DNA from: Anaerolineae bacterium
Lineage (GTDB): Bacteria; Chloroflexota; Anaerolineae; VGOG01
DNA: 64,000 nt
Assembly (NCBI GenBank): GCA_049589355.1
Contig: JBAWAP010000280.1
Location: forward strand, 32-64,031
Direction of reading: 5' to 3'
Position numbers and translations under genes: made by a program. The notes under the pieces were generated by a model. That model did no database searches, had not been told where the DNA came from, and saw nothing but the letters and a program-made list of their open reading frames with translations. How positions within the stretch are numbered: position 1 is the first letter of the stretch; each line of letters begins with the position of its first letter. Of this stretch, positions 5,521 to 51,625 are shown piece after piece.

Positions 5521-5705
5521 GTCATTGCGAGTCTTCCATGGCGCATCGCGCCATCCGTAGGGGGCAGAAACTGGCGGGCAGACTTCCGAAGTCTCCGAGA
5601 CTTCGGAAGTCTGGTCGCCCCCCGAGTTTCTGAGTAGCCGAAGGCGAAGCAATCTCCAACCTGGTGGGGGATTGCTTCGGCGCAAAAAGCGCGCCTCGCA
5701 ATGAC
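5521..5705. repeat. MITE-like palindromic element with termini GTCATTGCGAG..CTCGCAATGAC and internal GAAGCAATC/GATTGCTTC palindrome; carries an AGACTTCCGAAGTCT palindrome; flanked by outer IR AGGGCAATCGCAAA/TTTGCGATTGCCCT (5494-5752)
   Basis: Seen directly; related copies at 13181-13260, 22612-22843, 31641-31852. Confidence 0.8.
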
Positions 5706-6222: not shown

Positions 6223-6515
6223 GAATAGGGGATTAGACGATTGACGATTACCGATTGTCGAATGCCGATTGGAAACCAGGAATTGGGAATCGGCAATTGA
6301 AAATCGTCAATCGCCAATTGAATAGGGGATTAGACGATTGGTGATTACCGATTGTCGAATGCCGATTGGAGACCGAGAATTGGGAATCGGCAATTGAAAA
6401 TCGTCAATCGCCAATCGAATAGGGGATTAGACGATTGACGATTACCGATTGTCGAATGCCGATTGGAAACCGAGAATTGGGAATCGGCAATCGAAGATCG
6501 GCAATCGAAGATCGG
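6223..6515. repeat. Three tandem ~97-bp repeats (units start 6223, 6320, 6417) filling the rplU-rpmA intergenic region; rich in CGATTG/CAATCG sub-palindromes; 3' end degenerates into GCAATCGAAGATCG x2 and GAAATGG x2 just before the rpmA RBS
   Basis: Direct alignment of the three units (nearly identical). Confidence 0.9.
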
Positions 6516-13180: not shown

Positions 13181-13260
13181 GTCATTGCGAGGAGCGTTTT
13201 TTGCGACGAAGCAATCTCCTCCTTGCGGCTTGGGGATTGCTTCGCTTCGCTCGCAATGAC
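13181..13260. repeat. Short MITE copy (GTCATTGCGAG..GAAGCAATC..GATTGCTTC..CTCGCAATGAC); near-identical (reverse-complement) copy incl. flanks at 22760-22865
   Basis: Direct comparison. Confidence 0.85.
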
Positions 13261-14746: not shown

Positions 14747-14954
14747 AGAAGTTCTCCTTTTGGAACTCTCTCGTTTGGCACGAAGTGTACTAGAGCGAGG
14801 GTTGCTTTTTCAGGCAATGCTTTCCCTGCGATCTATGTTATCATATATTGGGGAACTTGTCAAGGTTCTCGGGGAATTCTTAAGGTTCGTCTTGGGTGCG
14901 ATGGCCACCCCCTCTTTCCCCCCCAACGTTGGGGGGGAGGAAGGGGGGAGGAGG

Positions 14955-22611: not shown

Positions 22612-22843
22612 CTGTCATTGCGAGTCGGCCATGGCGCGCCCCGCCATTCTAAAGGACAGAAACTTCATCATGTCATTGCGAGGCGACGGTTTTCCGCCGA
22701 AGCAATCCCCAATTAGCTACGTGGAGATTGCTTCGCTCCTGCGGGGCTCGCAATGACAGGTAAGTTTCTGAGTAGCGAAGCGAAGCAATCCCCAAGCCGC
22801 AAGGAGGAGATTGCTTCGTCGCAAAAAACGCTCCTCGCAATGA
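22612..22843. repeat. Composite of three nested/tandem GTCATTGCGAG-type MITE copies
   Basis: GTCATTGCGAG at 22613 and 22670; CTCGCAATGACA at 22747-22758 and 22832-22843. Confidence 0.8.
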
Positions 22844-28537: not shown

Positions 28538-31500
28538 ATGAGGACAATCTTCGACAGTTGTGAACCGCGATCCGAGGTTCTGAAAGGCGAGCTGCGAGAC
28601 GAAATCTTCGCGGCCCGGTTGAGAGATGTGATCATCGGCAAGGCCGATCCTGTCTATCAGGACCCTGTTATCTTCTTTGACAACACTTATCCCACCGAGG
28701 GCCTCAAGCTGCTGCTGGACGAAGGGCTGGGACGGCTGACTGGCCTCAAACCGGCCAGTAACGCCATCATCCGCCTAGAGACGGCCTTTGGCGGCGGCAA
28801 GACCCACAATCTAATCGCTCTCTACCATGCAACGATGGGCTATCGGCCCAGCGCCTCGCTGGTGGACACGGCACTCATTCCAATGCCGGGCTCCATCCAG
28901 GTGGTGGGCGTTGTTGGCTCGGACCTGCAGCCCTCGACGGGACTGGCTCACAACGGGTTCAGAACCTACACCCTCTGGGGTGAGATCGTTGCTCAGTTGA
29001 CCGATGACCAGGACCCCGCTCTGGTAGAACAAAGTGAGCGGGACAAGGTCGCCCCGGGCACCGGGCTGTGGGAGGAGTTGATCGGCGACGAACCCATGCT
29101 GATCATGCTGGACGAGATAGCCCGCCACCTGCGGGCAGCCAAGGCAGTGCCTACCACTACTGGCAAGTCGGACCTGGCTGAGCAGACGGTGGCCTTCCTC
29201 ATGTCCCTCTTCGAGTTCGCGGCCAGCAAGGAGCGAGTGGTGGTAGTCTACACCCTGGCCGATCCTCAAGATGCCTTCGGCAAGGAGACCGAGGAGCTGC
29301 GCCAGGAGCTGGCCGAAGCCAGGCGCGTCTCGGCGCGTCAGGAGCGTGTCATCACTCCTACAGGCGAGACCGAGATCTCGGCCATTGTCACCCACCGCCT
29401 GTTCCGACGCATAGATCACGCTGCTGGCCAGGCCACGGCTGCCGCCTACGCTGCCTACCTCAAGATGGCCCTGGATCAGAGCGCCGATCTACCCTCTCGG
29501 GCCGCCAGGGCCGAGTACGCCCAGGAGATGGTCAACGACTATCCCTTCCACCCCGAGCTACTGACTACCCTCAACCGCAAGACCTCGACCATTCCCAACT
29601 TTCAGAAGACCCGTGGCGCGCTGCGGCTGCTGGCCAGGGTGATCCGCCGCCTGTGGGAGAGGCGCCCGCCGGACGCTTACCTGATTCATCCCTATCACCT
29701 CGATCTGGCGGTGGAGGATATCGCTGGTGACTTGACCAGTCGCCTGGAGCGGCCGGCCTTTAAACAGGTGATCGAAGCGGACATCGTCAGTCCCAAGGCT
29801 GGCTCGCCAGCCCATGCCCAGTTGATTGACGTCTCCTGGCTGGAGGCCGGCAAACCGCCTTATGCTCGCCGCATCGCCACCACCGCCTTCTTGCACAGCC
29901 TGACCCAGGGCATCGCCACCGGAGTGGACCCGGCCGACCTGGCTCTGGCCGTGCTCCAGCCTGACGACGACCCCACCATGGTGGCCAAGGCTGCCGAGCG
30001 ACTGTACGACATCGGCTGGTTCTTCGAGTGGGATGGGCGCCGCTACCGCTTCAAGACCGAGCCGTCACTCAACAAGATTGTGACCGATGAGATGGGGTTG
30101 GTGGGACGTACCAAGGCCAAGGCTGAACTGGATGGGCGTATCCGTCAGGTGTGGAAAACGGGTTATTTCAAGCCGGCCTATTTCCCCAGCGAAGCCGGTG
30201 ACGTGGACGACGACGCCGACAAGCCCAAGTTGGTGGTCATCCACTACGACGCCGCCACCAGCAACGCTGGGGCAGCGGCTCCACCCGACCTGGTGCGCAA
30301 GATCTTCGACCACGCCGGGGCACTGCAGGGTTACCGTATCTATAAGAACAACGTCTTGTTCCTGGTGGCCGACGAAGACCAGGTGGAGAACATGGTGCAG
30401 GTAGCGCAGCGGTATCTGGCTATCGGGCGCATCACTGGCGACGCCGAGCGGATGGGGGAGTTCCACGAGGAGCAGCGCAAGAAGCTGAAGAAGATGGGCG
30501 AGGCCGCCGAGTTGGACGTGCGAGTGGCTATCACCAAAGCCTGTAAGTACCTCTACTATCCCAGTGCCGACGCCCCGCAGAAACACAGCAACCTGGCTCG
30601 CGAGACGCTACCCGCCCAGGATCAGGGTGAAGTCAACCAGGACCAGAGCAACGTGGTGCTGCGGGTGCTGAAGCAGTTGCAGAAGGTCCTGACAGCCGAC
30701 GATTCAACCCTGCCAGCCGCCTTTGTCAAGGCCAAAGCCTGGGATACGGGTCAGGCGAGCATGTCCACCGAGGATATGCGCCGTGCCTTCGCCCGCCGCA
30801 TGGGACTGCGCATCCTATTGGACCTGAACCAGCTCAAGAAGACCGTCCGCAACGGCATCAGCCAGGGCATCTGGGTCTACTACGACACGCCCGAACAGAT
30901 TGGCTACGGGCCGGAATCCCCAAGTCCCATGGTGCAGATCAGCGAGGATGTTCTCCTGTACACGCTGGAGGAAGCCAGACGGCTGGGGCTACGTATCAAA
31001 GGGGAGCGGGAAGAGGGCATTGGCCTTGAGGAGACTTGCCCTATCTGCCACCGGCCCGTCAGCCAGTGCATCTGTGGCCAGGCCTGTCCGGTGTGCGGGC
31101 AGGACCCGTGTGTCTGCGGAGTGAGGATCCGACTCCACGCCGATGGCGCGCCAGCCCAGGCTTTCCAGGGACTTCTCGATCAGTGTCACGACCAGGGTGT
31201 GACCAGCTTGGGCCGCCTCTTCGTGCGCATTGAGGGGAGGGACAGAGAGGGAGCGATGGAGGCCCGGGCCATGGGGCTGGCCATCCCCCAGTTGGGCAAG
31301 GGGCAATTCCGTGTAGAGCAGTCCTTCAACGCCGAGTTCGGCGAGGCCGAGTCACTGAGCCTGGTCTTTAACGGTGCTTGGGACCGCTACAAGCGGGTCA
31401 AGCAATTGACTGACGCCTTCGGCCACGAGGCCAGCAAGCTGTTGGCCAGGACCACTCTGCGGGCCGATTTCCCCGATGGCCTGGCCGTGGACTCAGACCA

Positions 31501-31588
31501 GTTCCAGACCATCCACGAGGTGTTCATCACGCTTGGCTTCGGGCACATGGTACTGGATGCGGAGCCGTGGATAGAAGAACACTCGTAG
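28538..31588 (+). CDS. DUF499-family P-loop ATPase (1016 aa), defence-island type
   Basis: N-terminus MRTIFDSCEPRSEVLKGELRDEIFAA.. and ..ETAFGGGKTHNL.. Walker A typical of DUF499; Cys-rich insert CPICHRPVSQCICGQACPVCGQDPCVCG near C-terminus. Confidence 0.7.
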   Translation: MRTIFDSCEPRSEVLKGELRDEIFAARLRDVIIGKADPVYQDPVIFFDNTYPTEGLKLLLDEGLGRLTGLKPASNAIIRLETAFGGGKTHNLIALYHATMGYRPSASLVDTALIPMPGSIQVVGVVGSDLQPSTGLAHNGFRTYTLWGEIVAQLTDDQDPALVEQSERDKVAPGTGLWEELIGDEPMLIMLDEIARHLRAAKAVPTTTGKSDLAEQTVAFLMSLFEFAASKERVVVVYTLADPQDAFGKETEELRQELAEARRVSARQERVITPTGETEISAIVTHRLFRRIDHAAGQATAAAYAAYLKMALDQSADLPSRAARAEYAQEMVNDYPFHPELLTTLNRKTSTIPNFQKTRGALRLLARVIRRLWERRPPDAYLIHPYHLDLAVEDIAGDLTSRLERPAFKQVIEADIVSPKAGSPAHAQLIDVSWLEAGKPPYARRIATTAFLHSLTQGIATGVDPADLALAVLQPDDDPTMVAKAAERLYDIGWFFEWDGRRYRFKTEPSLNKIVTDEMGLVGRTKAKAELDGRIRQVWKTGYFKPAYFPSEAGDVDDDADKPKLVVIHYDAATSNAGAAAPPDLVRKIFDHAGALQGYRIYKNNVLFLVADEDQVENMVQVAQRYLAIGRITGDAERMGEFHEEQRKKLKKMGEAAELDVRVAITKACKYLYYPSADAPQKHSNLARETLPAQDQGEVNQDQSNVVLRVLKQLQKVLTADDSTLPAAFVKAKAWDTGQASMSTEDMRRAFARRMGLRILLDLNQLKKTVRNGISQGIWVYYDTPEQIGYGPESPSPMVQISEDVLLYTLEEARRLGLRIKGEREEGIGLEETCPICHRPVSQCICGQACPVCGQDPCVCGVRIRLHADGAPAQAFQGLLDQCHDQGVTSLGRLFVRIEGRDREGAMEARAMGLAIPQLGKGQFRVEQSFNAEFGEAESLSLVFNGAWDRYKRVKQLTDAFGHEASKLLARTTLRADFPDGLAVDSDQFQTIHEVFITLGFGHMVLDAEPWIEEHS

Positions 31589-31640
31589 TAACGACTTTAG
31601 CTCGACATTGTTAAATTCGCTGTCGTAGCCAACAAAGGAT

Positions 31641-31852
31641 GTCATTGCGAGTCTTCCATGGCGCGGTGCGCCATCCGTAGGGGGCAGAAACTTGGGCGAG
31701 GTTCGTAGTAACAGCTTTAGCTGTCGTTTGGCAGCAAAGGCGACTAAAGTCGTCTACGAACCAAGTTTCTGAGTAGCGCAGCGAAGCAATCTCCCGCCTT
31801 CAAATGCAAGCAACGGTGGAGATTGCTTCGTCGCTGCGCTCCTCGCAATGAC
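31641..31852. repeat. GTCATTGCGAG-type MITE copy carrying an internal GTTCGTAGTAACAGCTTTAGC/GACTAAAGTCGTCTACGAAC palindrome; surrounded by further GTAGTAACGACTTTAGTC-type repeats (31592, 31893, 31935)
   Basis: Seen directly. Confidence 0.8.
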
Positions 31853-31968
31853 ACTTGGCCTGGAATCTAACAATGTCAAGTTAGTCGTTAATTGTGAACG
31901 ACTGAAGTCGTTACTACGGCGTTGCTACAACTTGTAGTAATGACTTTAGTCGTTCAAGGAGACCAAAT

Positions 31969-32898
31969 GTGAAGGCGCTTTCCATCCGCCAACCCTGGGC
32001 TGAGTTGATCCTCCAGGGACGCAAGACTATCGAACTGCGCACCTGGCCGACGAGCTACCGCGGCCGCATCGCCATCCATGCCAGCCAGACAGTTCGAGAG
32101 GAGGCTTGCATTGCCTATGGTCTGGATCCGGCCAGAATGGTGCGCGGCGCGCTGGTGGGCACGGTGGAACTGGTGGACGTTTTGCCGCTGGACGAGGCGG
32201 CATGGGAGGCTCTGCGCGATCAGCACCTGTCGTTGAGTGACTTCCCCGGCCCGATGTTCGGCTGGCGGCTGGAGGCCCCCCAACGCCTGCCCCAGCCGAT
32301 CCCCATGCGCGGCCGCATGAGCCTGTTTAATGTGGCCGATGAGGTGATAGCGGGAAAAGCACCACATTCCCCCCTCTCCCAGGGTTGGGAGAGGGGGCTA
32401 GGGGGTGAGGGCTTTGCGCCGCCCAAGGTGACCTATAACACGCGGGCCGATGCGCCGGCCTACGACCCTGAAAAACCCTTCGAGCTGTGGGTGGTTCCCT
32501 GCGATGGCGGCGACTATGGCCTGGCGTTGTATCAGTGGCCCGTGGCGGCCAATCGTGAGATCCCAAAGCCCCAGCGACTGGTGGAGCTGGCTGGCGATTC
32601 GCTGCGGGCTGTGGCCGACCACGTGCTGGAAGCGTTGCGCAAGAGTGACTATAAGGTGACCGACCTGTCTCACAACCGCCAAAAGCCCTTCCGCCTGGAC
32701 GAAGAGACGGGCTTGCGCCTGGGCCTGCTCTTTCTGGCTGTCAAACCATTGACCCGCATGGATCGCGTCGAGGCCATCTCTAGCGGCTTACGCACCATGC
32801 CGTCCGAGGAAGCCTACTATTGGTTCAGCAAGTGCACCGCTGAGGCGAGCGCTGTCAATGCCCAGCGGGCGCTGCGAATTTTGTTGGCTGGAGAGTGA
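31969..32898 (+). CDS. ASCH (PUA-like) domain protein with ~190-aa uncharacterized C-terminal region
   Basis: ..LSIRQPWAELILQGRKTIELRTW.. ASCH signature; GTG start with AAGGAGA RBS. Confidence 0.7.
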   Translation: MKALSIRQPWAELILQGRKTIELRTWPTSYRGRIAIHASQTVREEACIAYGLDPARMVRGALVGTVELVDVLPLDEAAWEALRDQHLSLSDFPGPMFGWRLEAPQRLPQPIPMRGRMSLFNVADEVIAGKAPHSPLSQGWERGLGGEGFAPPKVTYNTRADAPAYDPEKPFELWVVPCDGGDYGLALYQWPVAANREIPKPQRLVELAGDSLRAVADHVLEALRKSDYKVTDLSHNRQKPFRLDEETGLRLGLLFLAVKPLTRMDRVEAISSGLRTMPSEEAYYWFSKCTAEASAVNAQRALRILLAGE

Positions 32899-32969
32899 AG
32901 TGAAGGGAATGACCTGTCCGCTCCCCTGGAGTGTGAGTAGTGAAGTGTTGTTAAATTAAGGAGGATGAT

Positions 32970-33221
32970 ATGTCTGAGCTTTATTCTGTAACCGGCACCC
33001 TGTCGGATGAGCAAACAGTCATACTGGACAGACCTATTCCTCTGCCCATTGGTCGCGTGCGCTTGACCGTTGAAACGTTGCCCGCTGCCAAGCCTGATAG
33101 AACATTCCTCAGCAAGCTGCAGGCAATTCGCCAGGCTCTGCGCGCTAGCGGCTATCGCCCCTGCACCAGAGAAGAAATTGATGCGCAGACTACGCGCCCG
33201 CTATCGCTTCAGAACCCCTGA
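32970..33221 (+). CDS. Hypothetical small protein (83 aa)
   Basis: ORF with RBS GGAGGA; no family recognised. Confidence 0.4.
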   Translation: MSELYSVTGTLSDEQTVILDRPIPLPIGRVRLTVETLPAAKPDRTFLSKLQAIRQALRASGYRPCTREEIDAQTTRPLSLQNP

Positions 33222-33235
33222 CGCAGGAGGCGCAG

Positions 33236-36200
33236 ATGAACCCACCCCCCACCCTCATCGAATCCTGGCTGCCCTTCGAAGCCATTGGCGCGGAGAGCCA
33301 GCGCGAGCGGGGCGCCAGCAGCGCCTTGCCGCCGCTGTACTTCTTGCACGTCTGGTGGGCGCGCCGCCCGCTGACGGTGAGCCGTGCCGCAGTGCTGGCT
33401 GGCCTCTTGCCAGACTTCCGAAGTCTTGGAGACTTCGGAAGTCTCGACCTGCGCCAGAAGTTCCCTACCGAAGAGGCGTACCGCGCCTGGTTCACCCGCC
33501 TGCTGGGCATCCTGGGTGACCCGGTGACTGGCCGCAAGCTGCTTGCGCGTGCCCGTCAGGTCGGAAAGAAGATCCCCAACCCCTACGAGCACGGCCGGGC
33601 GTTCACGTACAATCCCCCGGCTGAGGAACTGGAAACAATGCTCGACCTGCTGGAGCAGGCATGGGGCACCCGCGAGATCACGGTCATGGATCCCATGGCC
33701 GGCGGAGGCTCCATCCCCTTCGAAGCCCTACGCTATGGCTTCACCGTGCTGGCTGGCGAATTGAACCCGGTCGCCGCGGTTATCCTCAAAGCCACCCTGG
33801 ACTACCCGGCTCGCTTCGGCCCGGCCCTGGCCGACGACATCCGCAGGTGGGGCAAGCGTTGGTACGAGTTGGTCAAACCCAGGCTGGAACCCTACTTCAC
33901 GCCGTTGCCACCAGGGGCTGAAGGCGCTGCCTACCTATGGGCGCGCACCGTCGCCTGCCCGACGACCGGCAAGCTGGTGCCTCTTTCCCCCAACTGGTGG
34001 CTGAGCAAGGGCAGCGACCTCGTGGCTGTGCGCCTGCTCACCAACCCCGCCTGGGACGAGCCACGCTTCGAGATCGTGCGCGGCTCTCCCCTCTCCCTGC
34101 CAGGGAGAGGGGCCGGGGGTGAGGGTTGGACCTTCGACCCCGACGAGGGCACAGTTAGCCGAGGGGTGGGACGCTCTCCCTGGACGGGCGAAGCCATTGA
34201 CGGCGACTACATCAAACGAGAGGCTCAGGCCGGCCGCATGGGGCAGATGCTGTACGCCGTGGCGGTGAAGAAGCCTGGTGGTTTCGACTTCCGCCCACAC
34301 ACAGAGGAGGACCTGGCCGCCGTCCGTCGCGCCGAGGCCGCCTTGGCCGAGAACCTGCCCCGCTGGGAGGCGGCCGGGTTGGTGCCGCGAGAGCCGTTCC
34401 CCGGCGGCAACGACCCCCGCCCACTGCTCTACGGCATGCCCACCTGGGCCGACTTCTTCTCTCCCCGCCAACTCCTCTCCCTGGTCACCTTCCTGGGGGC
34501 GCTGCGGGAGGTGGGTGCGGAGATGCGGCGGGAGATGGATGAGGAGCGGGCCGAGGCGGTGGAGACGTATTTGGCCTTTGCGCTGAACAAATGCCCAAAC
34601 TATAGCTCACGAATGTCGGTATGGCATCCGCTGCGTACCTCAATGGCAAATACCTTCAACCGCCATGACTTTAGCTTTGCTTGGAGTCATGGCGAGTTTG
34701 ATGCTGCTCACAACTTGCTACCCTGGGCTGTCAGCCAGATAGAGGATGCCTACAAAGGCCTGGCCATACTGACTGTTTCTGCCCAGATCCCTCTGTGGGG
34801 CAGTGATGGCGGCTCGCCCGTCGAGCGACTGCAAATCTGGCAGGGCTCAGCCACTGACCTCAGCCAAGTTGAGAGCTGCTCCGTCCACCACATCTGCGTG
34901 GACCCGCCCTACTATGACAACGTCATGTACGCTGAGCTCAGCGACTTCTTCTACGTCTGGCTCAAACGCAGTGTGGGCCACCTGTACCCCGAATTCTTCC
35001 GCGATACTTTGACCAATAAGGACGACGAAGCAGTGGCCAACCCCGCCCGCTTCAAGGCCCTCGCTTCCCCCTCTCCCGCTTCCCCCCTAAGGTTGGGGGG
35101 GACCGTGGGGGGGCGGAGAGGGGGGCAGGGGGTGAGGGACCTGGCCAAACGGGACTACGAACGCAAGATGGCCGCTTGCTTCCGCGAGATGCACCGCACC
35201 TTGCGCGACGACGGCGTGTTGACCGTCATGTTCACCCACAAGCAGGTGGAGGCCTGGGATACCCTGGCCACCGCGCTCATCGGCGCCGGCTTCACCATCA
35301 AAGCCTCCTGGCCTGTCCACACCGAGTCCGAGCACTCCCTGCACCAGGCCCAGAAGAACGCCGCTGCCAGTACCATCCTGCTGGTCTGCCGCAAACGAGC
35401 AGACAAGGAGACAAGGGGACAAGGAGACAGAGAGACAATCTCCGTGTCTCCCCCTCACCTTGTCTCCCCCTCTCAAGTGTGGTGGGATGACATCAAGGGC
35501 CGGGTGCGGCAGGTGGCACGGGAGAAGGCGGCTGAGTTCGCTGAACAGGGTGTCAGCGGGGTGGACCTGTACATCAGCACCTTCGGCCCTGTCCTGTCTG
35601 TCATCTCCGAGCGCTGGCCGGTGCTGACCAGCGAGGTGGATGAAAAGACAGGCCAGCCTAAGCCCCTACGCCCCGAAACCGCCCTTGACCTGGCCCGCGA
35701 GGAGGTCATCGCCCTGCGCAAGCGAGGACTGCTGCTGGGACGGGATATCCAGTTCGACCCCGTCACCGACTGGTACCTGATGGCCTGGGATGCCTTCAAA
35801 GCCGAGGAGTTCCCCGCCGACGAGGCGCGCAAGCTGGCCATCGCCCTGGGGTTGGACATCGAGGAGGACCTGGTGCGGCGCAAGCGGGTCATCGGCAAGA
35901 AGGGCAGCTTTGTGGTGCTGCAACAGCCCAAACACCGCCGCCGCAAGCACCTGGCCGACCCTGAGGCTGTGGTCTTCGACACCCTCCTGGACGCCGCCCA
36001 CGCCGCCATGCTCATCTACCACGAAGATGGGCCACTGGCCTGTGAAAGCTTCCTCAAGCGCACTGGCCTGCTGACCGACAGCACCTTCAAGGCCTGCCTC
36101 CAGGCCCTGCTCAACGCCATCCCCCGCACCCAGATCAAGGGCAGATTCGTCCGCCCCGAAGCCGACCTCCTGGAGCGTCTGCGAATGGCCTTCTTTGAGG

Positions 36201-36265
36201 ATTTGGAGGTGCCGGTGGAGGAGGAGGCGGGGGCGGTCATACAACAGCTAGGGTTGGACATCTAG
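33236..36265 (+). CDS. DUF1156-family adenine-specific DNA methyltransferase-like protein (1009 aa)
   Basis: N-terminus ..LIESWLPFEAIGAESQRER..LHVWWARRPL.. (DUF1156 hallmark); DPPY motif (..HHICVDPPYYDNVMY..) at ~34901. Confidence 0.75.
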   Translation: MNPPPTLIESWLPFEAIGAESQRERGASSALPPLYFLHVWWARRPLTVSRAAVLAGLLPDFRSLGDFGSLDLRQKFPTEEAYRAWFTRLLGILGDPVTGRKLLARARQVGKKIPNPYEHGRAFTYNPPAEELETMLDLLEQAWGTREITVMDPMAGGGSIPFEALRYGFTVLAGELNPVAAVILKATLDYPARFGPALADDIRRWGKRWYELVKPRLEPYFTPLPPGAEGAAYLWARTVACPTTGKLVPLSPNWWLSKGSDLVAVRLLTNPAWDEPRFEIVRGSPLSLPGRGAGGEGWTFDPDEGTVSRGVGRSPWTGEAIDGDYIKREAQAGRMGQMLYAVAVKKPGGFDFRPHTEEDLAAVRRAEAALAENLPRWEAAGLVPREPFPGGNDPRPLLYGMPTWADFFSPRQLLSLVTFLGALREVGAEMRREMDEERAEAVETYLAFALNKCPNYSSRMSVWHPLRTSMANTFNRHDFSFAWSHGEFDAAHNLLPWAVSQIEDAYKGLAILTVSAQIPLWGSDGGSPVERLQIWQGSATDLSQVESCSVHHICVDPPYYDNVMYAELSDFFYVWLKRSVGHLYPEFFRDTLTNKDDEAVANPARFKALASPSPASPLRLGGTVGGRRGGQGVRDLAKRDYERKMAACFREMHRTLRDDGVLTVMFTHKQVEAWDTLATALIGAGFTIKASWPVHTESEHSLHQAQKNAAASTILLVCRKRADKETRGQGDRETISVSPPHLVSPSQVWWDDIKGRVRQVAREKAAEFAEQGVSGVDLYISTFGPVLSVISERWPVLTSEVDEKTGQPKPLRPETALDLAREEVIALRKRGLLLGRDIQFDPVTDWYLMAWDAFKAEEFPADEARKLAIALGLDIEEDLVRRKRVIGKKGSFVVLQQPKHRRRKHLADPEAVVFDTLLDAAHAAMLIYHEDGPLACESFLKRTGLLTDSTFKACLQALLNAIPRTQIKGRFVRPEADLLERLRMAFFEDLEVPVEEEAGAVIQQLGLDI

Positions 36266-36292
36266 ATCGAACCGAGAAAGGAGTTCACACTG

Positions 36293-36667
36293 ATGACAGA
36301 GCATAAGGTGTTGATACCGGACCAGATGTTTGCTGAATTGATGCCGATATCGGAGCAGGAAGACAAAGAAATCAGCGATCTGGTTATAGAAGCATTGCAG
36401 CGGTATCTTTGGGAGGCCAAAGAACGCAAGATTGACCGGGAAATGGAGGCGTACCGTATGATGCACGCCGAACTGAAAGGACGTTTCCTAGGCGAGTACG
36501 TAGCTATTCACAATGGCGAGTTGGTGGATCACGACACTGATCGCCGTGCCCTGTCTCGACGGGTGCGACGAGAATACGGGAACACGGTAGTGCTCATCAC
36601 CCCCGTCGAGGATGAGCCAGAACGGGAGTTCTTGATGCTGAGTCCTCGATTTGAACGAGGTGTATGA
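36293..36667 (+). CDS. Small protein, DUF5678-like C-terminal domain (124 aa)
   Basis: ..YVAIHNGELVDHDTDRRALSRRVRREYGNTVVLI..; overlaps next gene by 4 bp. Confidence 0.45.
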   Translation: MTEHKVLIPDQMFAELMPISEQEDKEISDLVIEALQRYLWEAKERKIDREMEAYRMMHAELKGRFLGEYVAIHNGELVDHDTDRRALSRRVRREYGNTVVLITPVEDEPEREFLMLSPRFERGV

Positions 36668-37050
36668 TGCGATATCCTTACGACAGTCGTTACCATCCTC
36701 CGATGCCGGTTGTTGAGGTTGCTTTAGGCGTATCAGAGGGCGATTTCCCGTTGGAGCCGCTTCCTAGCATCATAGATACCGGCGCAGACATCACGATCGT
36801 GCCCAGGGAATACCTAATGCGCCTGGATGCACCGGTTGTTGCCAGTGGGTATCTGCGCAGCCCGTGGGGAGGCCGATCCAGTGTCAAGATATACGAAGTC
36901 AACGTGCGTGTCGGGGAACATGACCTGTATGGTGTTGAAGTTGCGGGTGAACCAGGCGGGCGCGAAGTGTTGTTGGGACGTAACTTGTTGAACCAGTTGG
37001 ATCTACGACTGGATGGGCCGAATGAGACCGTGGTTGTATTGTCAGGTTAG
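36664..37050 (+). CDS. Retropepsin-like (clan AA) aspartic protease, 128 aa
   Basis: ..SIIDTGADITIVP.. D-T/S-G-A active-site motif. Confidence 0.65.
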   Translation: MMRYPYDSRYHPPMPVVEVALGVSEGDFPLEPLPSIIDTGADITIVPREYLMRLDAPVVASGYLRSPWGGRSSVKIYEVNVRVGEHDLYGVEVAGEPGGREVLLGRNLLNQLDLRLDGPNETVVVLSG

Positions 37051-37078
37051 CTAGAGTATCTGTCCAAGAAGACCAACG

Positions 37079-40000
37079 ATGAGACTTCGCGATCATGACT
37101 TCCAGATTTCTTATGGCCCGGCCGATGACCGGCTCCACGACTTCTACATTCCGGCCCTGTCGTGCAGTCTGCGCTACGACCGCACGGCTGGCTTCTTTAG
37201 TAGCAGTGCCTTGGCCGTGGCGGCCGCTGGCGTGGCCCGGCTCATCGCCCAGGGCGGTACCATGCGCCTGCTGGTCGGTGCCCAACTGAGCGAAGCCGAC
37301 GTCCGTGCCATCGAGCGAGGACAGGCGTTGGACGAGGTCGTGGCCGAGCGACTGATCGCAGCCCTCAGCGAGCCCGAGGAAGAAGTCATGCAGCGCCGCC
37401 TGGAGGTGCTGGCCTGGATGGTCGCCGCAGGCAGGCTCCAAATCCGCGTCGTGCTCCCAAAAGGACCCGATGGTCACCCCCTTCCTGCATCCGAGGCCCA
37501 GGACTACTATCACCCCAAAGAGGGCCTCTTCACCGACCACTACGGCGACCAAATTGCCTTCAGCGGCAGCATTAACGAATCGGCCATTGGTTGGCAGCGC
37601 AATTATGAGCAGTTCTCCGTCTACTTCTCGTGGAACGCCACGGCTCCATACCTGGCCCAGGTGCGCTATCGGTTCGAGCATCTGTGGAATGGGCAGGAGC
37701 CGGACTGGATTGCGATGGACGTTCCCGAAGCGGCGCGGCAGCAGTTGCTTCGCTATCGCCCGGCCACGGCTCCTACCTGCGACCCGCTGGAGCGCGAACC
37801 GAAACCCAAGGTGGTCGAGCGTCCGGGCGTTTTCGTGCCTGAATTGCAGCATGAGCGTGTCCTCTTCCAGTTCCTGCGCGATGCTCCCCGTCTCCTCAAC
37901 GCCCGATGGCTGGGCGCGGCAACCAGCGCTGTCACTCCGTGGCCCCACCAGGCGCGCATTGCCGATACCATCGTCACCCGTTTCCCGGAGCGCTTCCTGC
38001 TTTGCGACGAGGTCGGCCTCGGAAAAACCATCGAGGCTGGCCTGGTGCTGCGTCAGCTCCTCTTGTCGGGCTACGTTCGCCGTTGCCTGATCCTGGCCCC
38101 TAAATCCGTCTGCCGCCAATGGCAGGAGGAACTCTACGAGAAGTTCGCCCTCAACGTCCCCTTCTTCGATGGCCACACCTTCCGTGACGTGTTCGGCCAG
38201 GAGCATACGCCGGACGTTCCTAACCCCTGGGACGCCGAGGACGTATTCATCGCCTCCAGCCAACTGGCTAAACGGCGCGAGCGCCAGCCGGATCTGTTGG
38301 CAGCTCGCCCGTGGGATCTGATCATCGTGGACGAGGCGCACCACGCCCGTCGCAAGGACTTTCTGGTTCCCCGCTACCGGCCCAACCGTCTGCTGGAGTT
38401 GCTGATGGGACAGGATGAACAGCCCGGGCTGAAAGATCGCACACTGAGCTTGCTCTTGATGACTGCTACTCCCATGCAGATCCATCCGGTGGAAGTGTGG
38501 GACCTGTTGCGGGTCCTCGGCCTGGGCGGTCGTTGGGGTGCTGACGATAGCAACTTCCTGCGCTTCTTCCAGGAGCTGCGTCGGCCTTTCGACGACGCGG
38601 ATTGGGATTTCGTCTTCGGCATGGTGCGCGATTTCCTGGATACGGGCGGGGAACTCGATCCGACATTTGCCAGTCAGGCCGAGGCCAAACTTGGCCTGGT
38701 GGATTGGCAGCGGTTCAAGATGCTGATATCACCTCAGGAACACGAAGCCAGACCCAAGCAGTTGTTGGCTAAGAATCGTGCCCTGGTGATAGAAATGACC
38801 CGCCGGCATACTCCACTGCGCCGGTATCTCTTTCGCAGCACCCGCCGCCTGCTCCGGGAGTACGTGCAGCGGGGCATTCTCAAGGCCAACGTGCCCCATC
38901 GGGACCCTGAGCCAGTCTGGATTGCGATGCGTGCTGACGAGCAGGATCTCTACCACCGGATCGAGGAGTACATCACCCATTTCTACCGAAAGTATGAGGC
39001 GGAGCGCAAGGGGTTGGGCTTCATTATGACCGTTTACCGGCGCCGGTTGACCAGCAGCTTCTATGCGGTGCGCCGCAGCCTGGAGCGGCGATTGGACTTC
39101 TTACGTGGCCAGACTGCCCCTGGCACGATAGCAGGCTTTGATGAAGACGACCTGGAGCAGGAAGACCTGACCCAGGACATCAGCGAGGAACTGGAAGCAG
39201 AGGAAAGGTCCCGCTTCCGTGGCGAGATCGAATACGTTGAGGATTTCCTGGCCGCGCTGCGCAGCTTGAGTGGCAACGATTCCAAGGTCGAGCAGTTGTT
39301 GGCTGACCTGGAGGAAATCTTCAAACGGCGCGAGACGGTCCTCATTTTCACCCACTACACCGACACGATGGACTTCCTACGCGAACAACTGCGGCAGGCA
39401 TACGGCAGCCAGGTGGCTTGCTATAGCGGACGGGGGGGCGAGGTGTGGAACGGCATCGCCTGGGTGCCGACGACCAAGGAGGAAATCAAGAACGCTTTTC
39501 GCCAAGGCGAGGCGATCAAGATTCTCCTTGGCACCGAGGCGGCCAGCGAGGGGTTGAACCTGCAAACCTGTGGTGTGTTGATCAACTACGACATGCCCTG
39601 GAACCCCATGCGGGTCGAGCAACGGATCGGCCGCATTGACCGCATCGGCCAGATGCACAAAAGGGTCTGGATTCGCCACTATTTCTACGAGGACACGGTG
39701 GAGGCCAGGGTCTACCGAGCGTTGGAGGATCGGATCGGTTGGTTTGAAGAAGTCGTCGGTGAGTTGCAGCCGATCCTTGCTCGAATAGGACAAGCCATCC
39801 AGAGCGCGGCCATGACGCCAGTGGCCGAGCGGGAGCAGGTGTTGACGCGAGAGTTGGAACAGCTACGGGAAGGGGCAGACACCCGACAGGCCGAGGGCCT
39901 TGACTTGGAGCAGTACCTGATCGCTGATGAGCCGTTGCTGGAGTCCACTTCTCCCGTCACCCTGAGCGACCTGGAGCGGGTGCTCACGCGGACATCGTCC

Positions 40001-40819
40001 CTGGTGGATCGTTTCCAACCGCATCCAAAATTCAAGCGGGCCTACTGGCTACGAACCGATGAGGGTGGCGCGGCTGTGACCTTCGACGTGGCCTTGTTTG
40101 ATGCCCACCCCAACACCTTGCGGTTGCTCACGTACGGAAGTGAGCTGCTGACGGCCCTGCTGAAGGCTGTGTCGGAGCCGGCTTCTGGCCCTGAGGGGCG
40201 TGTGCTACGCTGTTGGACGGAAGGCCCCCTGCCTCTTTGCGGCTACTACACCCTTGGCGCCAAGGGTCGCCCGCAGCGGATTGAGCGCCTGGCGGACCTC
40301 GAAGTACTCTATGCTGCGGACCCACATGCGCATTGGTCGGAAGAAGCCATAGCAACAGCGCGCGCCGACTTTCGGCGAGAGGTGGAGACACTGGTGCAGC
40401 GACGGGCGCAGGTGATCGCAGGCCGGCGGCGAGCAGAGCGTCTGGCGCTGGAGGAGCAAGCGCGCCAGACGCTGCTCCAGGCAGCGCTGGTAGAGCTGGC
40501 CATGGGGCAGCAACTCCAACTGTTCGCGGAAGAAGCACTGCCTGTGGCCTTCACCGAGGAAGCGATCACCGGCCTCAAGCGCCATGGTTATCCCTTTGCA
40601 CCATTGCTCAGGCTAGTCAATGTGGATGGCTTGCGGCCCAGCCCCACCGACCCGTTTTACACCGCGGTGCAGGGTAAATCACGAGAAGCCCTCAGGGGCC
40701 ACTTCAACGCGCTGCGGGACGAAGCAGTCCGGCTCTTGGGCCTGCTGGCAAGTGCTCCGGATCAGGAGGAGTCCTCCCAGGACATACAGGATGTCGTTGT
40801 GCAGACATTAGTAGTTTGA
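37079..40819 (+). CDS. PLD-like nuclease domain fused to SNF2-family helicase (1246 aa) with ~370-aa uncharacterized C-terminal region
   Basis: N-terminal HxK(x4)D (..HPKEGLFTD..), ATPase motif I ..LCDEVGLGKTIEAG.., motif II ..IIVDEAHHARR.., helicase-C ..LNLQTCGVLINYDMPWNP..QRIGRIDRIGQ.. Confidence 0.8.
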   Translation: MRLRDHDFQISYGPADDRLHDFYIPALSCSLRYDRTAGFFSSSALAVAAAGVARLIAQGGTMRLLVGAQLSEADVRAIERGQALDEVVAERLIAALSEPEEEVMQRRLEVLAWMVAAGRLQIRVVLPKGPDGHPLPASEAQDYYHPKEGLFTDHYGDQIAFSGSINESAIGWQRNYEQFSVYFSWNATAPYLAQVRYRFEHLWNGQEPDWIAMDVPEAARQQLLRYRPATAPTCDPLEREPKPKVVERPGVFVPELQHERVLFQFLRDAPRLLNARWLGAATSAVTPWPHQARIADTIVTRFPERFLLCDEVGLGKTIEAGLVLRQLLLSGYVRRCLILAPKSVCRQWQEELYEKFALNVPFFDGHTFRDVFGQEHTPDVPNPWDAEDVFIASSQLAKRRERQPDLLAARPWDLIIVDEAHHARRKDFLVPRYRPNRLLELLMGQDEQPGLKDRTLSLLLMTATPMQIHPVEVWDLLRVLGLGGRWGADDSNFLRFFQELRRPFDDADWDFVFGMVRDFLDTGGELDPTFASQAEAKLGLVDWQRFKMLISPQEHEARPKQLLAKNRALVIEMTRRHTPLRRYLFRSTRRLLREYVQRGILKANVPHRDPEPVWIAMRADEQDLYHRIEEYITHFYRKYEAERKGLGFIMTVYRRRLTSSFYAVRRSLERRLDFLRGQTAPGTIAGFDEDDLEQEDLTQDISEELEAEERSRFRGEIEYVEDFLAALRSLSGNDSKVEQLLADLEEIFKRRETVLIFTHYTDTMDFLREQLRQAYGSQVACYSGRGGEVWNGIAWVPTTKEEIKNAFRQGEAIKILLGTEAASEGLNLQTCGVLINYDMPWNPMRVEQRIGRIDRIGQMHKRVWIRHYFYEDTVEARVYRALEDRIGWFEEVVGELQPILARIGQAIQSAAMTPVAEREQVLTRELEQLREGADTRQAEGLDLEQYLIADEPLLESTSPVTLSDLERVLTRTSSLVDRFQPHPKFKRAYWLRTDEGGAAVTFDVALFDAHPNTLRLLTYGSELLTALLKAVSEPASGPEGRVLRCWTEGPLPLCGYYTLGAKGRPQRIERLADLEVLYAADPHAHWSEEAIATARADFRREVETLVQRRAQVIAGRRRAERLALEEQARQTLLQAALVELAMGQQLQLFAEEALPVAFTEEAITGLKRHGYPFAPLLRLVNVDGLRPSPTDPFYTAVQGKSREALRGHFNALRDEAVRLLGLLASAPDQEESSQDIQDVVVQTLVV

Positions 40820-49468: not shown

Positions 49469-49482
49469 AATACTCCACGAAA

Positions 49483-49540
49483 TAGAATGTCTGTAGGGAT
49501 CCCCTACCCCTACAGACATTCTATTTTCCCCCCTTCTTCC
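49483..49540 (+). terminator. Long hairpin AATAGAATGTCTGTAGGG..CCCTACAGACATTCTATT after ssrA
   Basis: Seen directly. Confidence 0.6.
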
Positions 49541-49657: not shown

Positions 49658-51625
49658 CTAAGCGCCCACATAGTCCCGCTTCAGAAGGCTACCGCGATCA
49701 ACGCCAAATACACCCAATAACTCCCCTATCAGCAATGCTTTCTGCTCAGCATCTCTTTTGGACCAGGTACGGCTCTTGATCTCTAAAAAGATTCCTTCGT
49801 AAGCTGGCTTAGTTAACCTATCAAGATTAACAGCAAAATGCACCCCCTTGTACCTGATGTGCCAGCGTTGCCGATGCTTATGAATTTCCTTCACAGTGTC
49901 CGGCTCAAAATACTCACAATAGAAGCGCAAAGTCCGATCGGCTTGGGAAGTGAAACGCGAGCGGGAGAGAAGGACTGAATTGTCAAATTCTCGCTCACTA
50001 CCTGACTCAACTAAGGTCAGAGTGTGTATGGACTCAGGCATCTCCTCCTCTTCCCTTACCACGTTATCCTCACGATGGCGGATGTACCCCTGGCTCTTGT
50101 CGGCGAAAAGCAAATAGGTATCATATTGATCCCGAACCGAGGGCCTCCACACCGCAGTAATATCTGGATGAGCCAGCCCTTCCCTGACGGCGGCTTCGCT
50201 TTCCACACGTCCTTTGACTTGCACTTCAAACGTTTCCTTCCACTCCAAACCACCAATAGCCACTAGTTTGTCCAGAAGGCTCTCCTCCCTTCGCATCATG
50301 AAAACGTTTACCCTATCAGCAATGCGTTGGACCTCGGCCATGATCATCTCTACGTCCATAGTAACAAGCTCTCTATCCTTCATCAATAACCGCCCATTCA
50401 CCAGGACATGACGCACATCAGCGCTCTTACCAGCATAAACCAATTGAGAATAGATATTGTCGGCCGATAGATTAAATTTCGGCGTGACGTGAAGGACATT
50501 CAGATCTACGACAGCCAAATCTGCCTGTTTGCCCACCTCAATCGAACCTGTGATATGATCCAGGTACAGGGCCCGCGCTCCCCCGATGGTAGCCATGTTC
50601 AAAGCAATTCGCGCTGGGACAGCCTTAGGGTCACGCGCCAGGCCCTTAGCTAAGAGGGCAGCCAAGCGCGTCTCCTCGAACATATCTTGGTCATTATTGC
50701 TAGCAGCGCCATCAGTGCCAATACCTACGTTCACGCCGAGATCCAACATGCGAGCCACCTTCGCCACACCACTTGCAAGCTTCAAATTGCTCGTCGGGGC
50801 ATGAGCTACGCTGATGCCTCTCTGTCCCAATAGCTTCATCTCTTCCTCAGTCAGGTACACACCATGAATAGCCAAAGCCTTGCTATCCAAGATACCGAAG
50901 CTGTCAAGACAAAATACCGGCGCGCAGCCGTAGAGCTGTTGTGTGCCCTCCACGTCCCCCTCCGTCTCCGAGATATGGATGAGTAGAGGTACATCGTATT
51001 CCTGGGCTAGTCGCGCCGTCTCCCTCAAGATCTCCGGTGTGCATGTATACGGTGAGTGCGGACCGACAGCAGGCACGATCAGGTCATGTCCCTTCCACCC
51101 GGCAACGAATCGCCGACAGTATTCCAAGCTCTCGTCGTAACTAGCCGCATCAGGGGTGGGCAACTTCATGACCGTTTCAGCACAGACCGCCCGCATGCCC
51201 GCTTCCTGTGCCGCCCTAGCCACCTCGTCCTCGAAATAATACATATCGGCAAAGCAAGTCACGCCTGAACGGATCATCTCTGCACAAGACAACAAGGTAC
51301 CGTAATAACAGGACTCCTCGTTGACGAATTCCCTCTCCACTGGCAGCATATAGCCATAAAGCCAGACATCGAGGCGCAAATCGTCCGCCAGACCCCTGAG
51401 CAGGCTCATGGGCGCGTGAGTGTGAGCGTTGATCAAGCCAGGCATAACCACCTGCCCAGCGCAATCTAACATCTGCTCAGTCTCGTACCTTCCAGCTAAA
51501 TCGGCCACTGGCCCTACAGCGACTATCTTGCCATCCCTTATGGCCACTACCCCCTGAGGAAAAACCTCCATGCCCTCATTCATAGTAACCACGGTGCCAT
51601 TTACCAAGATCATATCCGCTTTCAT
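49658..51625 (-). CDS. mtaD: 5-methylthioadenosine/S-adenosylhomocysteine deaminase (amidohydrolase, MtaD-like) fused to a ~215-aa C-terminal domain of unknown function
   Basis: N-terminal 440 aa: ..MPGLINAHTHAPMSLLRG.. metal-dependent amidohydrolase; the C-terminal third (..WKETFEVQVKG..FLEIKSRTW..) has no deaminase counterpart. Confidence 0.7.
   Translation of the reverse strand: MKADMILVNGTVVTMNEGMEVFPQGVVAIRDGKIVAVGPVADLAGRYETEQMLDCAGQVVMPGLINAHTHAPMSLLRGLADDLRLDVWLYGYMLPVEREFVNEESCYYGTLLSCAEMIRSGVTCFADMYYFEDEVARAAQEAGMRAVCAETVMKLPTPDAASYDESLEYCRRFVAGWKGHDLIVPAVGPHSPYTCTPEILRETARLAQEYDVPLLIHISETEGDVEGTQQLYGCAPVFCLDSFGILDSKALAIHGVYLTEEEMKLLGQRGISVAHAPTSNLKLASGVAKVARMLDLGVNVGIGTDGAASNNDQDMFEETRLAALLAKGLARDPKAVPARIALNMATIGGARALYLDHITGSIEVGKQADLAVVDLNVLHVTPKFNLSADNIYSQLVYAGKSADVRHVLVNGRLLMKDRELVTMDVEMIMAEVQRIADRVNVFMMRREESLLDKLVAIGGLEWKETFEVQVKGRVESEAAVREGLAHPDITAVWRPSVRDQYDTYLLFADKSQGYIRHREDNVVREEEEMPESIHTLTLVESGSEREFDNSVLLSRSRFTSQADRTLRFYCEYFEPDTVKEIHKHRQRWHIRYKGVHFAVNLDRLTKPAYEGIFLEIKSRTWSKRDAEQKALLIGELLGVFGVDRGSLLKRDYVGA

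Follow-up and report, generated by a model that had tools for sequence, protein, structure and literature searches.

The stretch of DNA analysed here (hereafter the window) comprises 64,000 nucleotides of contig JBAWAP010000280.1 (positions 32 to 64,031 of the forward strand) from a metagenome-assembled genome (MAG) of an Anaerolineae bacterium, and it carries an Hma-type defence operon in which two genes, one for an ASCH + DUF7680 protein and one for the DUF1156/HmaB DNA adenine methyltransferase, contain three short, structured, repeated elements. A preliminary description had reported palindromic elements in these two coding sequences. We located all three on the plus strand, each in-frame within an open reading frame (ORF), found their peptides as described and both ORFs uninterrupted on translation despite the inserts, and corrected the end of the third element from 35128 to 35138, its last arm GGGGGTGAGGG having been cut off. 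The host genes and the elements, which are called TM units or copies 1 to 3 below and whose pyrimidine, purine and second purine arms are denoted Y, R and H, are as follows.

28538 to 40819, plus strand: Hma-type defence operon (Pfam and PADLOC)
31969 to 32898, plus strand: host gene 1, ASCH + DUF7680 protein of 309 aa (Pfam)
32366 to 32416, plus strand: TM/BoxC-type copy 1, 51 nt or 17 codons, in the ASCH-DUF7680 inter-domain linker
32372 to 32380, plus strand: Y arm CCCTCTCCC of copy 1, followed by the loop AGGGTT
32387 to 32395, plus strand: R arm GGGAGAGGG of copy 1
32403 to 32411, plus strand: H arm GGGTGAGGG of copy 1
33236 to 36265, plus strand: host gene 2, DUF1156/HmaB DNA adenine methyltransferase of 1009 aa (Pfam; PADLOC HmaB, 2.8e-74)
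34085 to 34132, plus strand: TM/BoxC-type copy 2, DUF1156 site B, with the TM core at 34089 to 34125 and the peptide SPLSLPGRGAGGEGWT
35058 to 35138, plus strand: TM/BoxC-type copy 3, DUF1156 site C, composite, with the TM core at 35069 to 35138 and the peptide PSPASPLRLGGTVGGRRGGQGVRD; its parts are a degenerate left outer arm CCCTCGCTTCC, the Y arm at 35069 to 35077, the R arm GGAGAGGGG from 35115 and the H arm GGGGGTGAGGG at 35128 to 35138
35080 to 35113, plus strand: element nested in the loop of copy 3, C6-TAAGGTT-G7-ACCGT-G7

The exact 11-mer GGGGGTGAGGG was present three times in the 64 kb against 0.07 expected, and a count of at least three was reached by 0/100 shuffles, while the strict hairpin CCCTCTCCC-N-GGGAGAGGG was present twice against 0.00 expected. 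Each GGGGGTGAGGG was preceded by a CCCTCTCCC/GGGAGAGGG hairpin, which in copy 3 is split by extra sequence, and the order of the arms was the same in all three copies: CCCTCTCCC, then GG(G)AGAGGG, then GGGTGAGGG. The unit comprises 35-45 nt of pyrimidine arm (CCCTCTCCC), loop, purine arm (GGGAGAGGG), short spacer and second purine arm (GGGTGAGGG), and a loose scan for it (at most 2 mismatches) in the window and in the homologous loci L001 and L003 found no extra copies (fetched loci are cited by L numbers and proteins by P numbers). The R and H arms hold four G runs, for which a G-quadruplex may be considered. Because the two purine arms nearly mirror each other, we suspected a fold-back triplex. 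Indeed, with the 9-nt consensus arms all three window copies gave 9/9 Watson-Crick pairs and 9/9 reverse-Hoogsteen triads, and all of them conformed to the triad rule (C-G*G, T-A*A or T-A*T, at most one mismatch), the sole mismatch in the scan being the first G of GGGAGAGGG, replaced by C in the R arm of copy 3. When the arms were parsed at full length, the loops measured 6 and 3 nt in copy 1 and 5 and 2 nt in copy 2, within the 1-6 nt rule of ITxF, and the first loop of copy 3 measured 37 nt owing to its nested element. For copy 1, DNA folding predicted a hairpin of -15.2 kcal/mol (z = -3.1) that leaves the third arm free. The diagnostic feature of the unit is this third arm, not the palindrome.

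Alignments with homologues show all three copies to be true insertions, as the preliminary description had claimed. For copy 1 (TM core 32372-32411, peptide HSPLSQGWERGLGGEGF), the 17-residue segment was present in 0/119 ASCH/DUF7680 homologues, the nearest of which (81-87% identity, 292 aa) have GKAP-PPPRVTY at the site, and the 51-nt gain was confined to this lineage among the homologues compared. Its DNA boundaries were clean, with GCACCAC on one side and CGCCGCCC on the other, and the comparison of filled and empty sites gave no target-site duplication longer than 1 nt (1 ambiguous base). The DUF1156 gene was compared with 29 homologues as protein (66-86% identity) and with three close homologues as DNA (82-84% nucleotide identity), and sites B and C were empty in most of the 29. 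At site B, the 12 nt GATGCCATTGAC (DAID) of the empty homologues are replaced by a 48-nt block, a net gain of 36 nt; this site was filled only in the window and in P0003/L002 among the homologues aligned, L001 and L003 being empty, and the block was identical in the window and L002 except for the last 6 nt (TGGACC vs GGAGCC), the whole gene being 82% identical. At site C, 27 nt are replaced by 60; the site was filled in L002, P0012, P0013 and the metagenome contigs L130 and L131, and empty in L001 and L003. The site C element of L002 is an un-nested, two-faced palindrome, CCCTCACCCCC-GG-CCCCTCTCCC-AGGGTT-GGGAGAGGGG-GGCA-GGGGGTGAGGG, which has the same hairpin and loop as the window ASCH copy, and the window site C copy equals this L002 element plus a second element nested in the loop. 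Copy 3 contains two G7 runs, one G6 run and one G5 run. The same inserts were present in independent assemblies, which rules out an assembly artefact.

Further inserts were seen in homologues of both genes. In the DUF1156 homologue L131:693-4052 the TM unit stands three times in tandem at site C (SPSPRVGRGGQGARALL three times), and this protein also holds other palindrome-derived inserts elsewhere; to judge from the tandem, local amplification of TM units within a gene would evidently be possible. The ASCH-DUF7680 linker, whose length varies among homologues, carries a different triplex-type insert in L002:3349-4272 and in about 15 ASCH homologues (P0129-P0161), with the peptide PSPSEGEG... 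and the DNA CCCTCCCCC-TCAGA-GGGGGAGGG-AGGAA-GGGAGAGGG (one triad mismatch).

The three elements are, by the make-up of their arms, copies of a repeat family, probably persisting as selfish dispersed DNA, that was named BoxC by Bachellier (1990s), PIT element by Hoyne and Maher (2000) and TM_ECO by Holder et al. (2015, PMC4666352), and which has thus been known for about 30 years. The TM_ECO consensus is CCCTCNCCC N3-6 GGGNGAGGG N3 GGGNGAGGG (Holder et al. 2015, PMC4666352), and the window copies share with the family the arms CCCTCNCCC, GGGNGAGGG and GGGNGAGGG in the same order and with the same class II triad scheme, as well as, in copies 1 and 2, loops that are short and variable; further shared traits are the dispersal in many copies and the inverted pairs formed by some of them. 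Previous work showed that an isolated TM_ECO strand of the E. coli consensus folds in vitro into a stable intrastrand triplex of the class II purine-motif type, counted 3610 copies in 262 proteobacterial genomes, with Synechocystis and H. influenzae occurrences reported earlier besides these, found 23/23 copies of E. coli K-12 to be intergenic and genomic variability to be raised around TM loci in E. coli, and recorded neither promoter nor terminator activity for PIT elements in E. coli (PMC4666352). The window copies differ from E. coli TM_ECO in that all three lie in-frame within genes, which is not a structural criterion, in that one of them is split by a nested element, in their host, an Anaerolineae MAG, and in arms that are 1-2 G:C pairs longer; the literal TM_ECO regular expression (3-6 nt, N3) therefore misses them, the second spacer being 7 and 5 nt in copies 1 and 2 when strict 9-nt arms are imposed. 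The preliminary description had called them REP/MITE-like (for repetitive extragenic palindromic sequences, REPs, and MITEs, transposable elements of the miniature inverted-repeat type), which holds in so far as they are dispersed, structured, in-frame repeats, but they are neither private to this genome nor new and belong to BoxC/PIT/TM_ECO.

The motif is repeated many times outside the window, as that description had anticipated. A strict 29-nt pattern of the unit matched at least 120 stretches across one genome per species, against about 0.03 expected by our own estimate, and the matches listed fell in Chloroflexota, Alpha-, Beta- and Gammaproteobacteria, Acidobacteriota, Planctomycetota, Verrucomicrobiota, Cyanobacteria, Gemmatimonadota, Myxococcota and others, so that the present scan reaches many more phyla than the 262 proteobacterial genomes of Holder et al. 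(2015). Among these matches the flanks were unrelated and the loops variable, and the three arms were constant. In addition, the exact 26-mer formed by the hairpin and loop of the ASCH copy was found in 57 stretches of metagenome DNA, whose distinct flanks number about 40; the recurrence of the same arbitrary loop in so many contexts argues for copying, not convergence.

Residence within genes was examined in both sets. An open frame (±180 nt) spanned 14/38 of the Chloroflexota matches and 26/73 of the other non-cyanobacterial matches listed, so that 36% of the copies in the cross-phylum sample lay in an open frame vs about 75% of random positions, and even the 36% is an upper bound, many of the spanning frames being Arg/Pro/Ala-rich shadow ORFs of GC-rich DNA. 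Copies in real genes made up roughly 5-8% of that sample, as judged by eye and by Pfam; their hosts included leucyl-tRNA synthetase (LeuRS), methionyl-tRNA synthetase (MetRS) and Lhr helicase (Pfam), and three further hosts, a HypF-like protein, a membrane protein and, with two copies, a radical-SAM enzyme, were judged genic by eye. Of the distinct 26-mer loci, about a quarter lay in-frame within genuine genes on Chloroflexota-like metagenome contigs, with hosts that comprised DUF1156 site C, Ser/Thr kinase-FGE, CHAT, CHAT-STAND, Mfd, UbiD, a xanthine-dehydrogenase subunit and a Fer4-ParA ATPase. Pfam domains flank the element on both sides in kinase-FGE, CHAT, Mfd, UbiD, the xanthine-dehydrogenase subunit, Fer4-ParA, Lhr, LeuRS and MetRS. 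In-frame residence is thus, by these host lists, a general habit of the ASCH-type sub-variant in these organisms and not one specific to defence. A literature search for in-frame palindromes in Chloroflexi found nothing relevant, which is not proof of absence.

The positions occupied in the window are of a kind that may tolerate added residues. In an AlphaFold model of the DUF1156 protein, built on the homologue alignment (mean pLDDT 69), coil segments with pLDDT <50 at residues 285-299, 610-631 and 724-745 correspond to inserts B, C and D (the last a palindrome of another family, described below), and we call these sites permissive because they are modelled as disordered, and the ASCH site because it is a length-variable inter-domain linker. 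HmaB holds four inserted structured repeats in all, and its DPPY motif is intact by translation and alignment. Five of the six reading frames of the TM unit are without a stop, the stop lying in one frame of the motif strand (G GGG TGA GGG); copies 1 and 2 are read in the GGEG frame and copy 3 in the GVR frame. Persistence of the copies is accordingly traced to a net insertion that is a multiple of three, a stop-free frame and a permissive site, and they are most likely selfish repeats that would survive only in disordered loops or linkers and in open frames. The suggestion of the preliminary description that the element tolerates or selects in-frame insertion holds for tolerance; the selection is better read as survivorship, since genic copies are a minority (36% vs about 75%, 5-8% in real genes), most frames are open and the inserts lie in low-pLDDT coil.

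Among known elements, those most alike in behaviour are the Rickettsia palindromic elements (RPEs; Ogata et al. 2000, 2002), which, according to PMC10969869, are selfish palindromic repeats residing in-frame in unrelated genes, translated, and tolerated through structurally compatible positions. RPEs and TM units are alike in in-frame, translated, tolerated insertion; RPEs, however, are about 100-150 bp long, restricted to Rickettsia, unrelated to TM units in their sequence families and devoid of a Hoogsteen arm, whereas TM units measure 35-51 nt and span many phyla, and by length, sequence and host the window elements are not RPE members. We know of no enzyme that moves either RPEs or TM units.

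A candidate for such an enzyme came from TM units that flank a DUF559 domain. In MetRS of L006 (2111-2649) and LeuRS of L113 (1827-2218), TM units flank an in-frame DUF559 domain (Vsr-like PD-(D/E)xK), and the same TM-DUF559-TM arrangement was present at a third locus, L016:5594-6026; the geometry of this cassette is fixed as [Y-R-H] - DUF559 - [H'-Y-R], with inverted TM units. To guard against circularity, a DUF559 query of 125 aa without any TM peptide was searched against 1.84 billion cluster representatives, 25,684 of which matched at E <= 0.001. Within 45 residues of the best 150 matches, a TM-type peptide, as recognised by a hand-made regular expression, was found on the N side in 69, on the C side in 64 and on both sides in 41 (typically PSPSGRGAGGEG on the N side and PSPPAPLPEGEG on the C side), against 13/491 (2.6%) of control windows of the same proteins. 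Embedding, taken as 100 or more host residues on either side of the domain, was seen in 40/150 matches, and 26/40 of these had both TMs. By Pfam, the hosts of the 40 embedded cassettes were HsdS (18), Eco57I (6), MmeI_Mtase (6), N6_N4 and N6 methyltransferases, TaqI_C, type ISP, HSDR_N and, in one case, DUF1156, and the remaining hosts include tRNA synthetases, CobT, EPSP synthase and Maf (proteins P0361-P0503). Most of the 40 hosts being restriction-modification (R-M) or methyltransferase proteins, the DUF559-carrying form is biased to defence genes. By BLAST, the distant DUF1156 homologues P0493 and P0399, one of them from an NC10 bacterium, carry the cassette; it lies about 10 residues off site B, and we do not claim site B as a cassette footprint.

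The same association can be followed in E. coli. The arm orientation in 4/5 inverted TM pairs of E. coli K-12 is that of the cassette (Table 1, PMC4666352). The end of ycjD, a DUF559 gene, ...RRSPSP*, lies on a TM arm CCCTCNCCC, with TM #9 located 168 nt downstream (L124, NC_000913.3 1349500-1352500). The Vsr/DUF559 clan takes in a group I intron homing endonuclease, and the cassette resembles Vsr-like/EDxHD homing endonucleases (I-Bth0305I) in that DUF559 belongs to the same PD-(D/E)xK clan, and homing endonucleases and inteins in that DUF559 stands in-frame in conserved hosts, including aminoacyl-tRNA synthetases and R-M genes. It differs from them in that the DUF559 ORF is without intron or intein splicing modules, is bracketed by TM units and is apparently translated within the host protein; a nuclease or homing role of DUF559 in the cassette is putative. 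No paper linking DUF559, COG2852 or YcjD with BoxC was found in a literature search, which is not proof of absence.

From these observations we propose the following explanation. On a single strand, the unit would fold into a hairpin from its Y and R arms, and the third arm would lie antiparallel on the hairpin through reverse-Hoogsteen pairs of the types G*G, A*A and T*A. Copies entered the ASCH-DUF7680 linker and two HmaB methyltransferase loops, where they would be translated as harmless Gly/Pro/Ser/Arg-rich peptides; the permissive sites have also gathered other palindrome families, and one TM copy has received a nested element in its loop. Spread might, though we would not put it as high as an even chance, follow a route of the cut-and-repair or homing type that leaves target sites unduplicated and has the DUF559 endonuclease as its enzyme, with solo TM units and TM pairs as possible non-autonomous derivatives of TM-bracketed DUF559. 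Further, we tentatively suggest that the BoxC/TM repeats are the ends and non-autonomous derivatives of a selfish [Y-R-H]-DUF559-[H'-Y-R] cassette not recognised before. Such a cassette might enter coding sequences in-frame without splicing, preferring R-M or defence genes, such as those for HsdS, type IIG/ISP and other methyltransferases and DUF1156, and tRNA synthetase linkers, and the solo TM units of the Hma operon may, with a similar degree of doubt, be its footprints or miniature copies.

Several points weigh against this explanation. The DUF559-TM link is a correlation, and the association could have another sense, with TMs targeting or flanking DUF559 genes. By tblastn, DUF559 was not found in the window, in L001-L003 or in any Chloroflexota locus fetched. 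Sites B and C resemble, in the alignments, substitutions, unlike the prediction of a simple cut-and-paste event. The TM-type peptides were counted with the hand-made expression, the real genes were separated from shadow ORFs partly by eye, and the source genome was sampled by one contig and a 64-kb window. In addition, previous work found a stable triplex neither in duplex DNA nor in vivo and reported no transposon link for TM_ECO in E. coli (PMC4666352).

Four other explanations were weighed. The copies could be REP-type elements moved by a RAYT, an IS200/IS605-like Y1 transposase whose substrates are single-stranded hairpins and whose insertions are free of target-site duplications. REPs and their doublets (REPINs) resemble TM units in being short G/C-rich hairpins of high copy number, some in inverted doublets, without target-site duplication; the short G/C-rich hairpin of the window elements, for which no target-site duplication was found, is what a RAYT would leave, and an extragenic palindrome family does occupy five intergenic sites of the window. 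We nevertheless consider RAYT mobilisation unlikely. According to PMC3733652, a GTAG or CGTC tetranucleotide tag defines two large REP superfamilies, and by eye both tags were absent from the three units; REPs are also essentially extragenic and REP families usually lineage-specific, whereas the arms of TM units are the same across phyla, and the conserved third arm and the association with DUF559 have no counterpart, the third arm having no part in the RAYT model.

Co-option of the inserts by the defence operon, either through G5-G7 runs that switch HmaB or through a DNA structure that modulates transcription or recombination, seemed about as improbable. The placement of all three window TM copies in Hma genes speaks for it, as do the G runs of copy 3, the tandem or nested site C variants of other homologues, the unusual variability of TM loci in E. 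coli (PMC4666352) and the bias of DUF559 cassettes to R-M genes. Indeed, the clustering in Hma genes is significant in the window, three genic copies out of three being improbable at a genic rate of 5-8%. However, no more than three events stand behind the three copies, and two of those were inherited with a mosaic, recombining gene; for that reason a functional role, such as phase variation through the G7 runs, is treated as a minor alternative. No frameshifted alleles were seen among the aligned homologues, housekeeping genes carry the same sub-variant, the peptides lie in disordered, lineage-variable loops, as neutral passengers would, and PIT elements are without promoter or terminator activity in E. 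coli (PMC4666352). The concentration in the defence island noted in the preliminary description describes the window (3/3 in Hma genes) but does not extend to a general rule, the same sub-variant being found in-frame also in Mfd, UbiD, the xanthine-dehydrogenase subunit, kinases and CHAT proteins.

A classical MITE, mobilised by a DDE transposase through recognition of terminal inverted repeats, is very improbable: the elements are small, palindromic and dispersed, in-frame intragenic MITE fusions are known from the literature and a DDE_Tnp_1 gene adjoins the L002 operon, but the target-site duplication at the clean ASCH insertion is at most 1 nt, the length of 35-51 nt is far under the typical MITE size, and the unit, with its Y-R-H layout, is asymmetric and does not consist of terminal inverted repeats. 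Finally, native low-complexity linkers or products of slippage or template switching, palindromic by chance and immobile, would suit the occurrence of the segments in linkers and loops whose length is variable in every lineage, but this has practically nothing left to recommend it given that the nearest orthologues are without the segments, the identical 26-nt hairpin and loop recurs in about 40 unrelated contexts, the 29-nt pattern occurs across phyla far above chance and the same inserts are present in independent assemblies.

Under the reading of the window elements as selfish BoxC/PIT/TM_ECO copies, what is new relative to Holder et al. (2015) is the presence of the family in many phyla, its in-frame genic copies and the bracketing of DUF559 by inverted TM pairs. 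The novelty lies in behaviour and context, that is, in translated intragenic copies, nesting, tandem duplication, shared permissive loops, phylum range and DUF559 coupling. A family that is strictly intergenic in E. coli can reside within proteins in the form of translated loops and so, outside Rickettsia, behave as RPEs do. In Chloroflexota MAGs, both the annotation and the alignment of proteins are inflated and distorted by the inserts. If the DUF559 coupling were causal, it would provide a testable spread mechanism for an orphan repeat family, a function for DUF559, of which E. coli YcjD is a member, and a route for selfish DNA to remodel defence-system proteins; the TM-DUF559 cassette hypothesis is directly testable in E. 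coli.

The operon around the two host genes contains the three components by which Hma is recognised, namely an SNF2/DEAD helicase (HmaA), a DUF1156 methyltransferase (HmaB) and a DUF499 AAA+ ATPase (HmaC), co-located. A protein database search returned P0121 as 100% identical to the ASCH + DUF7680 protein. The other genes of the operon are the following.

28538 to 31588, plus strand: HmaC/DUF499 ATPase (Pfam DUF499; PADLOC HmaC, 3.3e-96)
between the ASCH gene and HmaB: an 83-aa ORF, a member of the operon
36293 to 37050, between HmaB and HmaA: two small ORFs, one DUF5678 and one aspartyl-protease-like
37079 to 40819, plus strand: HmaA SNF2 helicase (Pfam SNF2/Helicase_C; PADLOC HmaA, 1.2e-61)

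The small genes of the operon vary among close homologues, with unrelated ORFs at L001:3172-3783 and L002:7650-8486, and in L003 (5948-7805) an AAA_15/AAA_21 ATPase + DUF4276 pair stands between ASCH and DUF1156. The operon appears, from these gene orders, to take up gene-sized cargo besides mini-repeats.

Palindromes of other families are also present in the window, two of them (sites A and D of the DUF1156 gene) absent from the preliminary description.

33410 to 33446, plus strand: palindrome of a different family, DUF1156 site A, AGACTTCCGAAGTCT-TGG-AGACTTCGGAAGTCT, with the peptide DFRSLGDFGSL
about 35400 to 35475, plus strand: imperfect palindrome of a third family, DUF1156 site D, GACAAGGAGACAAGG...CCTTGTCTCC, with the peptide DKETRGQGDRETISVSPPHLVSPS
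14908 to 14947: intergenic palindrome, CCCCCTCTTTCCCCCCC-AACGTT-GGGGGGGAGGAAGGGGG
5645 to 5679, 13207 to 13244, 22698 to 22735, 22781 to 22818 and 31782 to 31830: CGAAGCAATCNCC/GGNGATTGCTTCG family

The palindrome of site A was predicted to fold at -16 kcal/mol (z = -6.3), and its peptide stands in place of QWSxDWPxxL of other homologues. Its family (AGACTTCSGAAGTCT palindromes) is also represented by an intergenic hairpin at 5579-5613 and at site D of the L001 homologue, and AGACTTCSGAAGTCT half-sites lie at 11163-11177 and 11247-11261, about 70 nt apart, at the 5' end, or in the leader, of a gene for a LysM/M23 peptidase (minus-strand ORF 9828-11303). The palindrome of site D was predicted to fold at -19.7 kcal/mol (z = -4.3); in the window/L003, L001 and L002 the very same position holds three unrelated palindromes, and the site is without a palindrome in the more distant homologues P0028, P0035, P0039, P0040 and P0116. 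The C7-AACGTT-G7 palindrome that had been likened to the three elements does exist and is intergenic (14908-14947), but by its sequence it appears akin to the poly-C/poly-G element nested in copy 3, not to the TM_ECO unit.

Of the separate extragenic family CGAAGCAATCNCC-loop-GGNGATTGCTTCG, the window contains five copies, each in a gap between long ORFs, and the family was also seen in the TM-carrying metagenome loci L144, L150, L151, L166 and L172. A search of Rfam at a permissive threshold returned only sub-threshold miRNA-like hairpins (21-30 bits vs gathering scores of 55-100) and no known RNA family. At 6240-6514, inverted and direct repeats overlap densely, with units such as AATCGGCAATTGAAAATCGTCAATCG and arms that reach 80 nt and are 71% complementary. 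Just downstream of the ORF 49658-51625 (minus strand), at 49480-49526, lies a perfect inverted repeat of 19 bp, AAATAGAATGTCTGTAGGG / CCCTACAGACATTCTATTT, whose spacer is 9 nt long.

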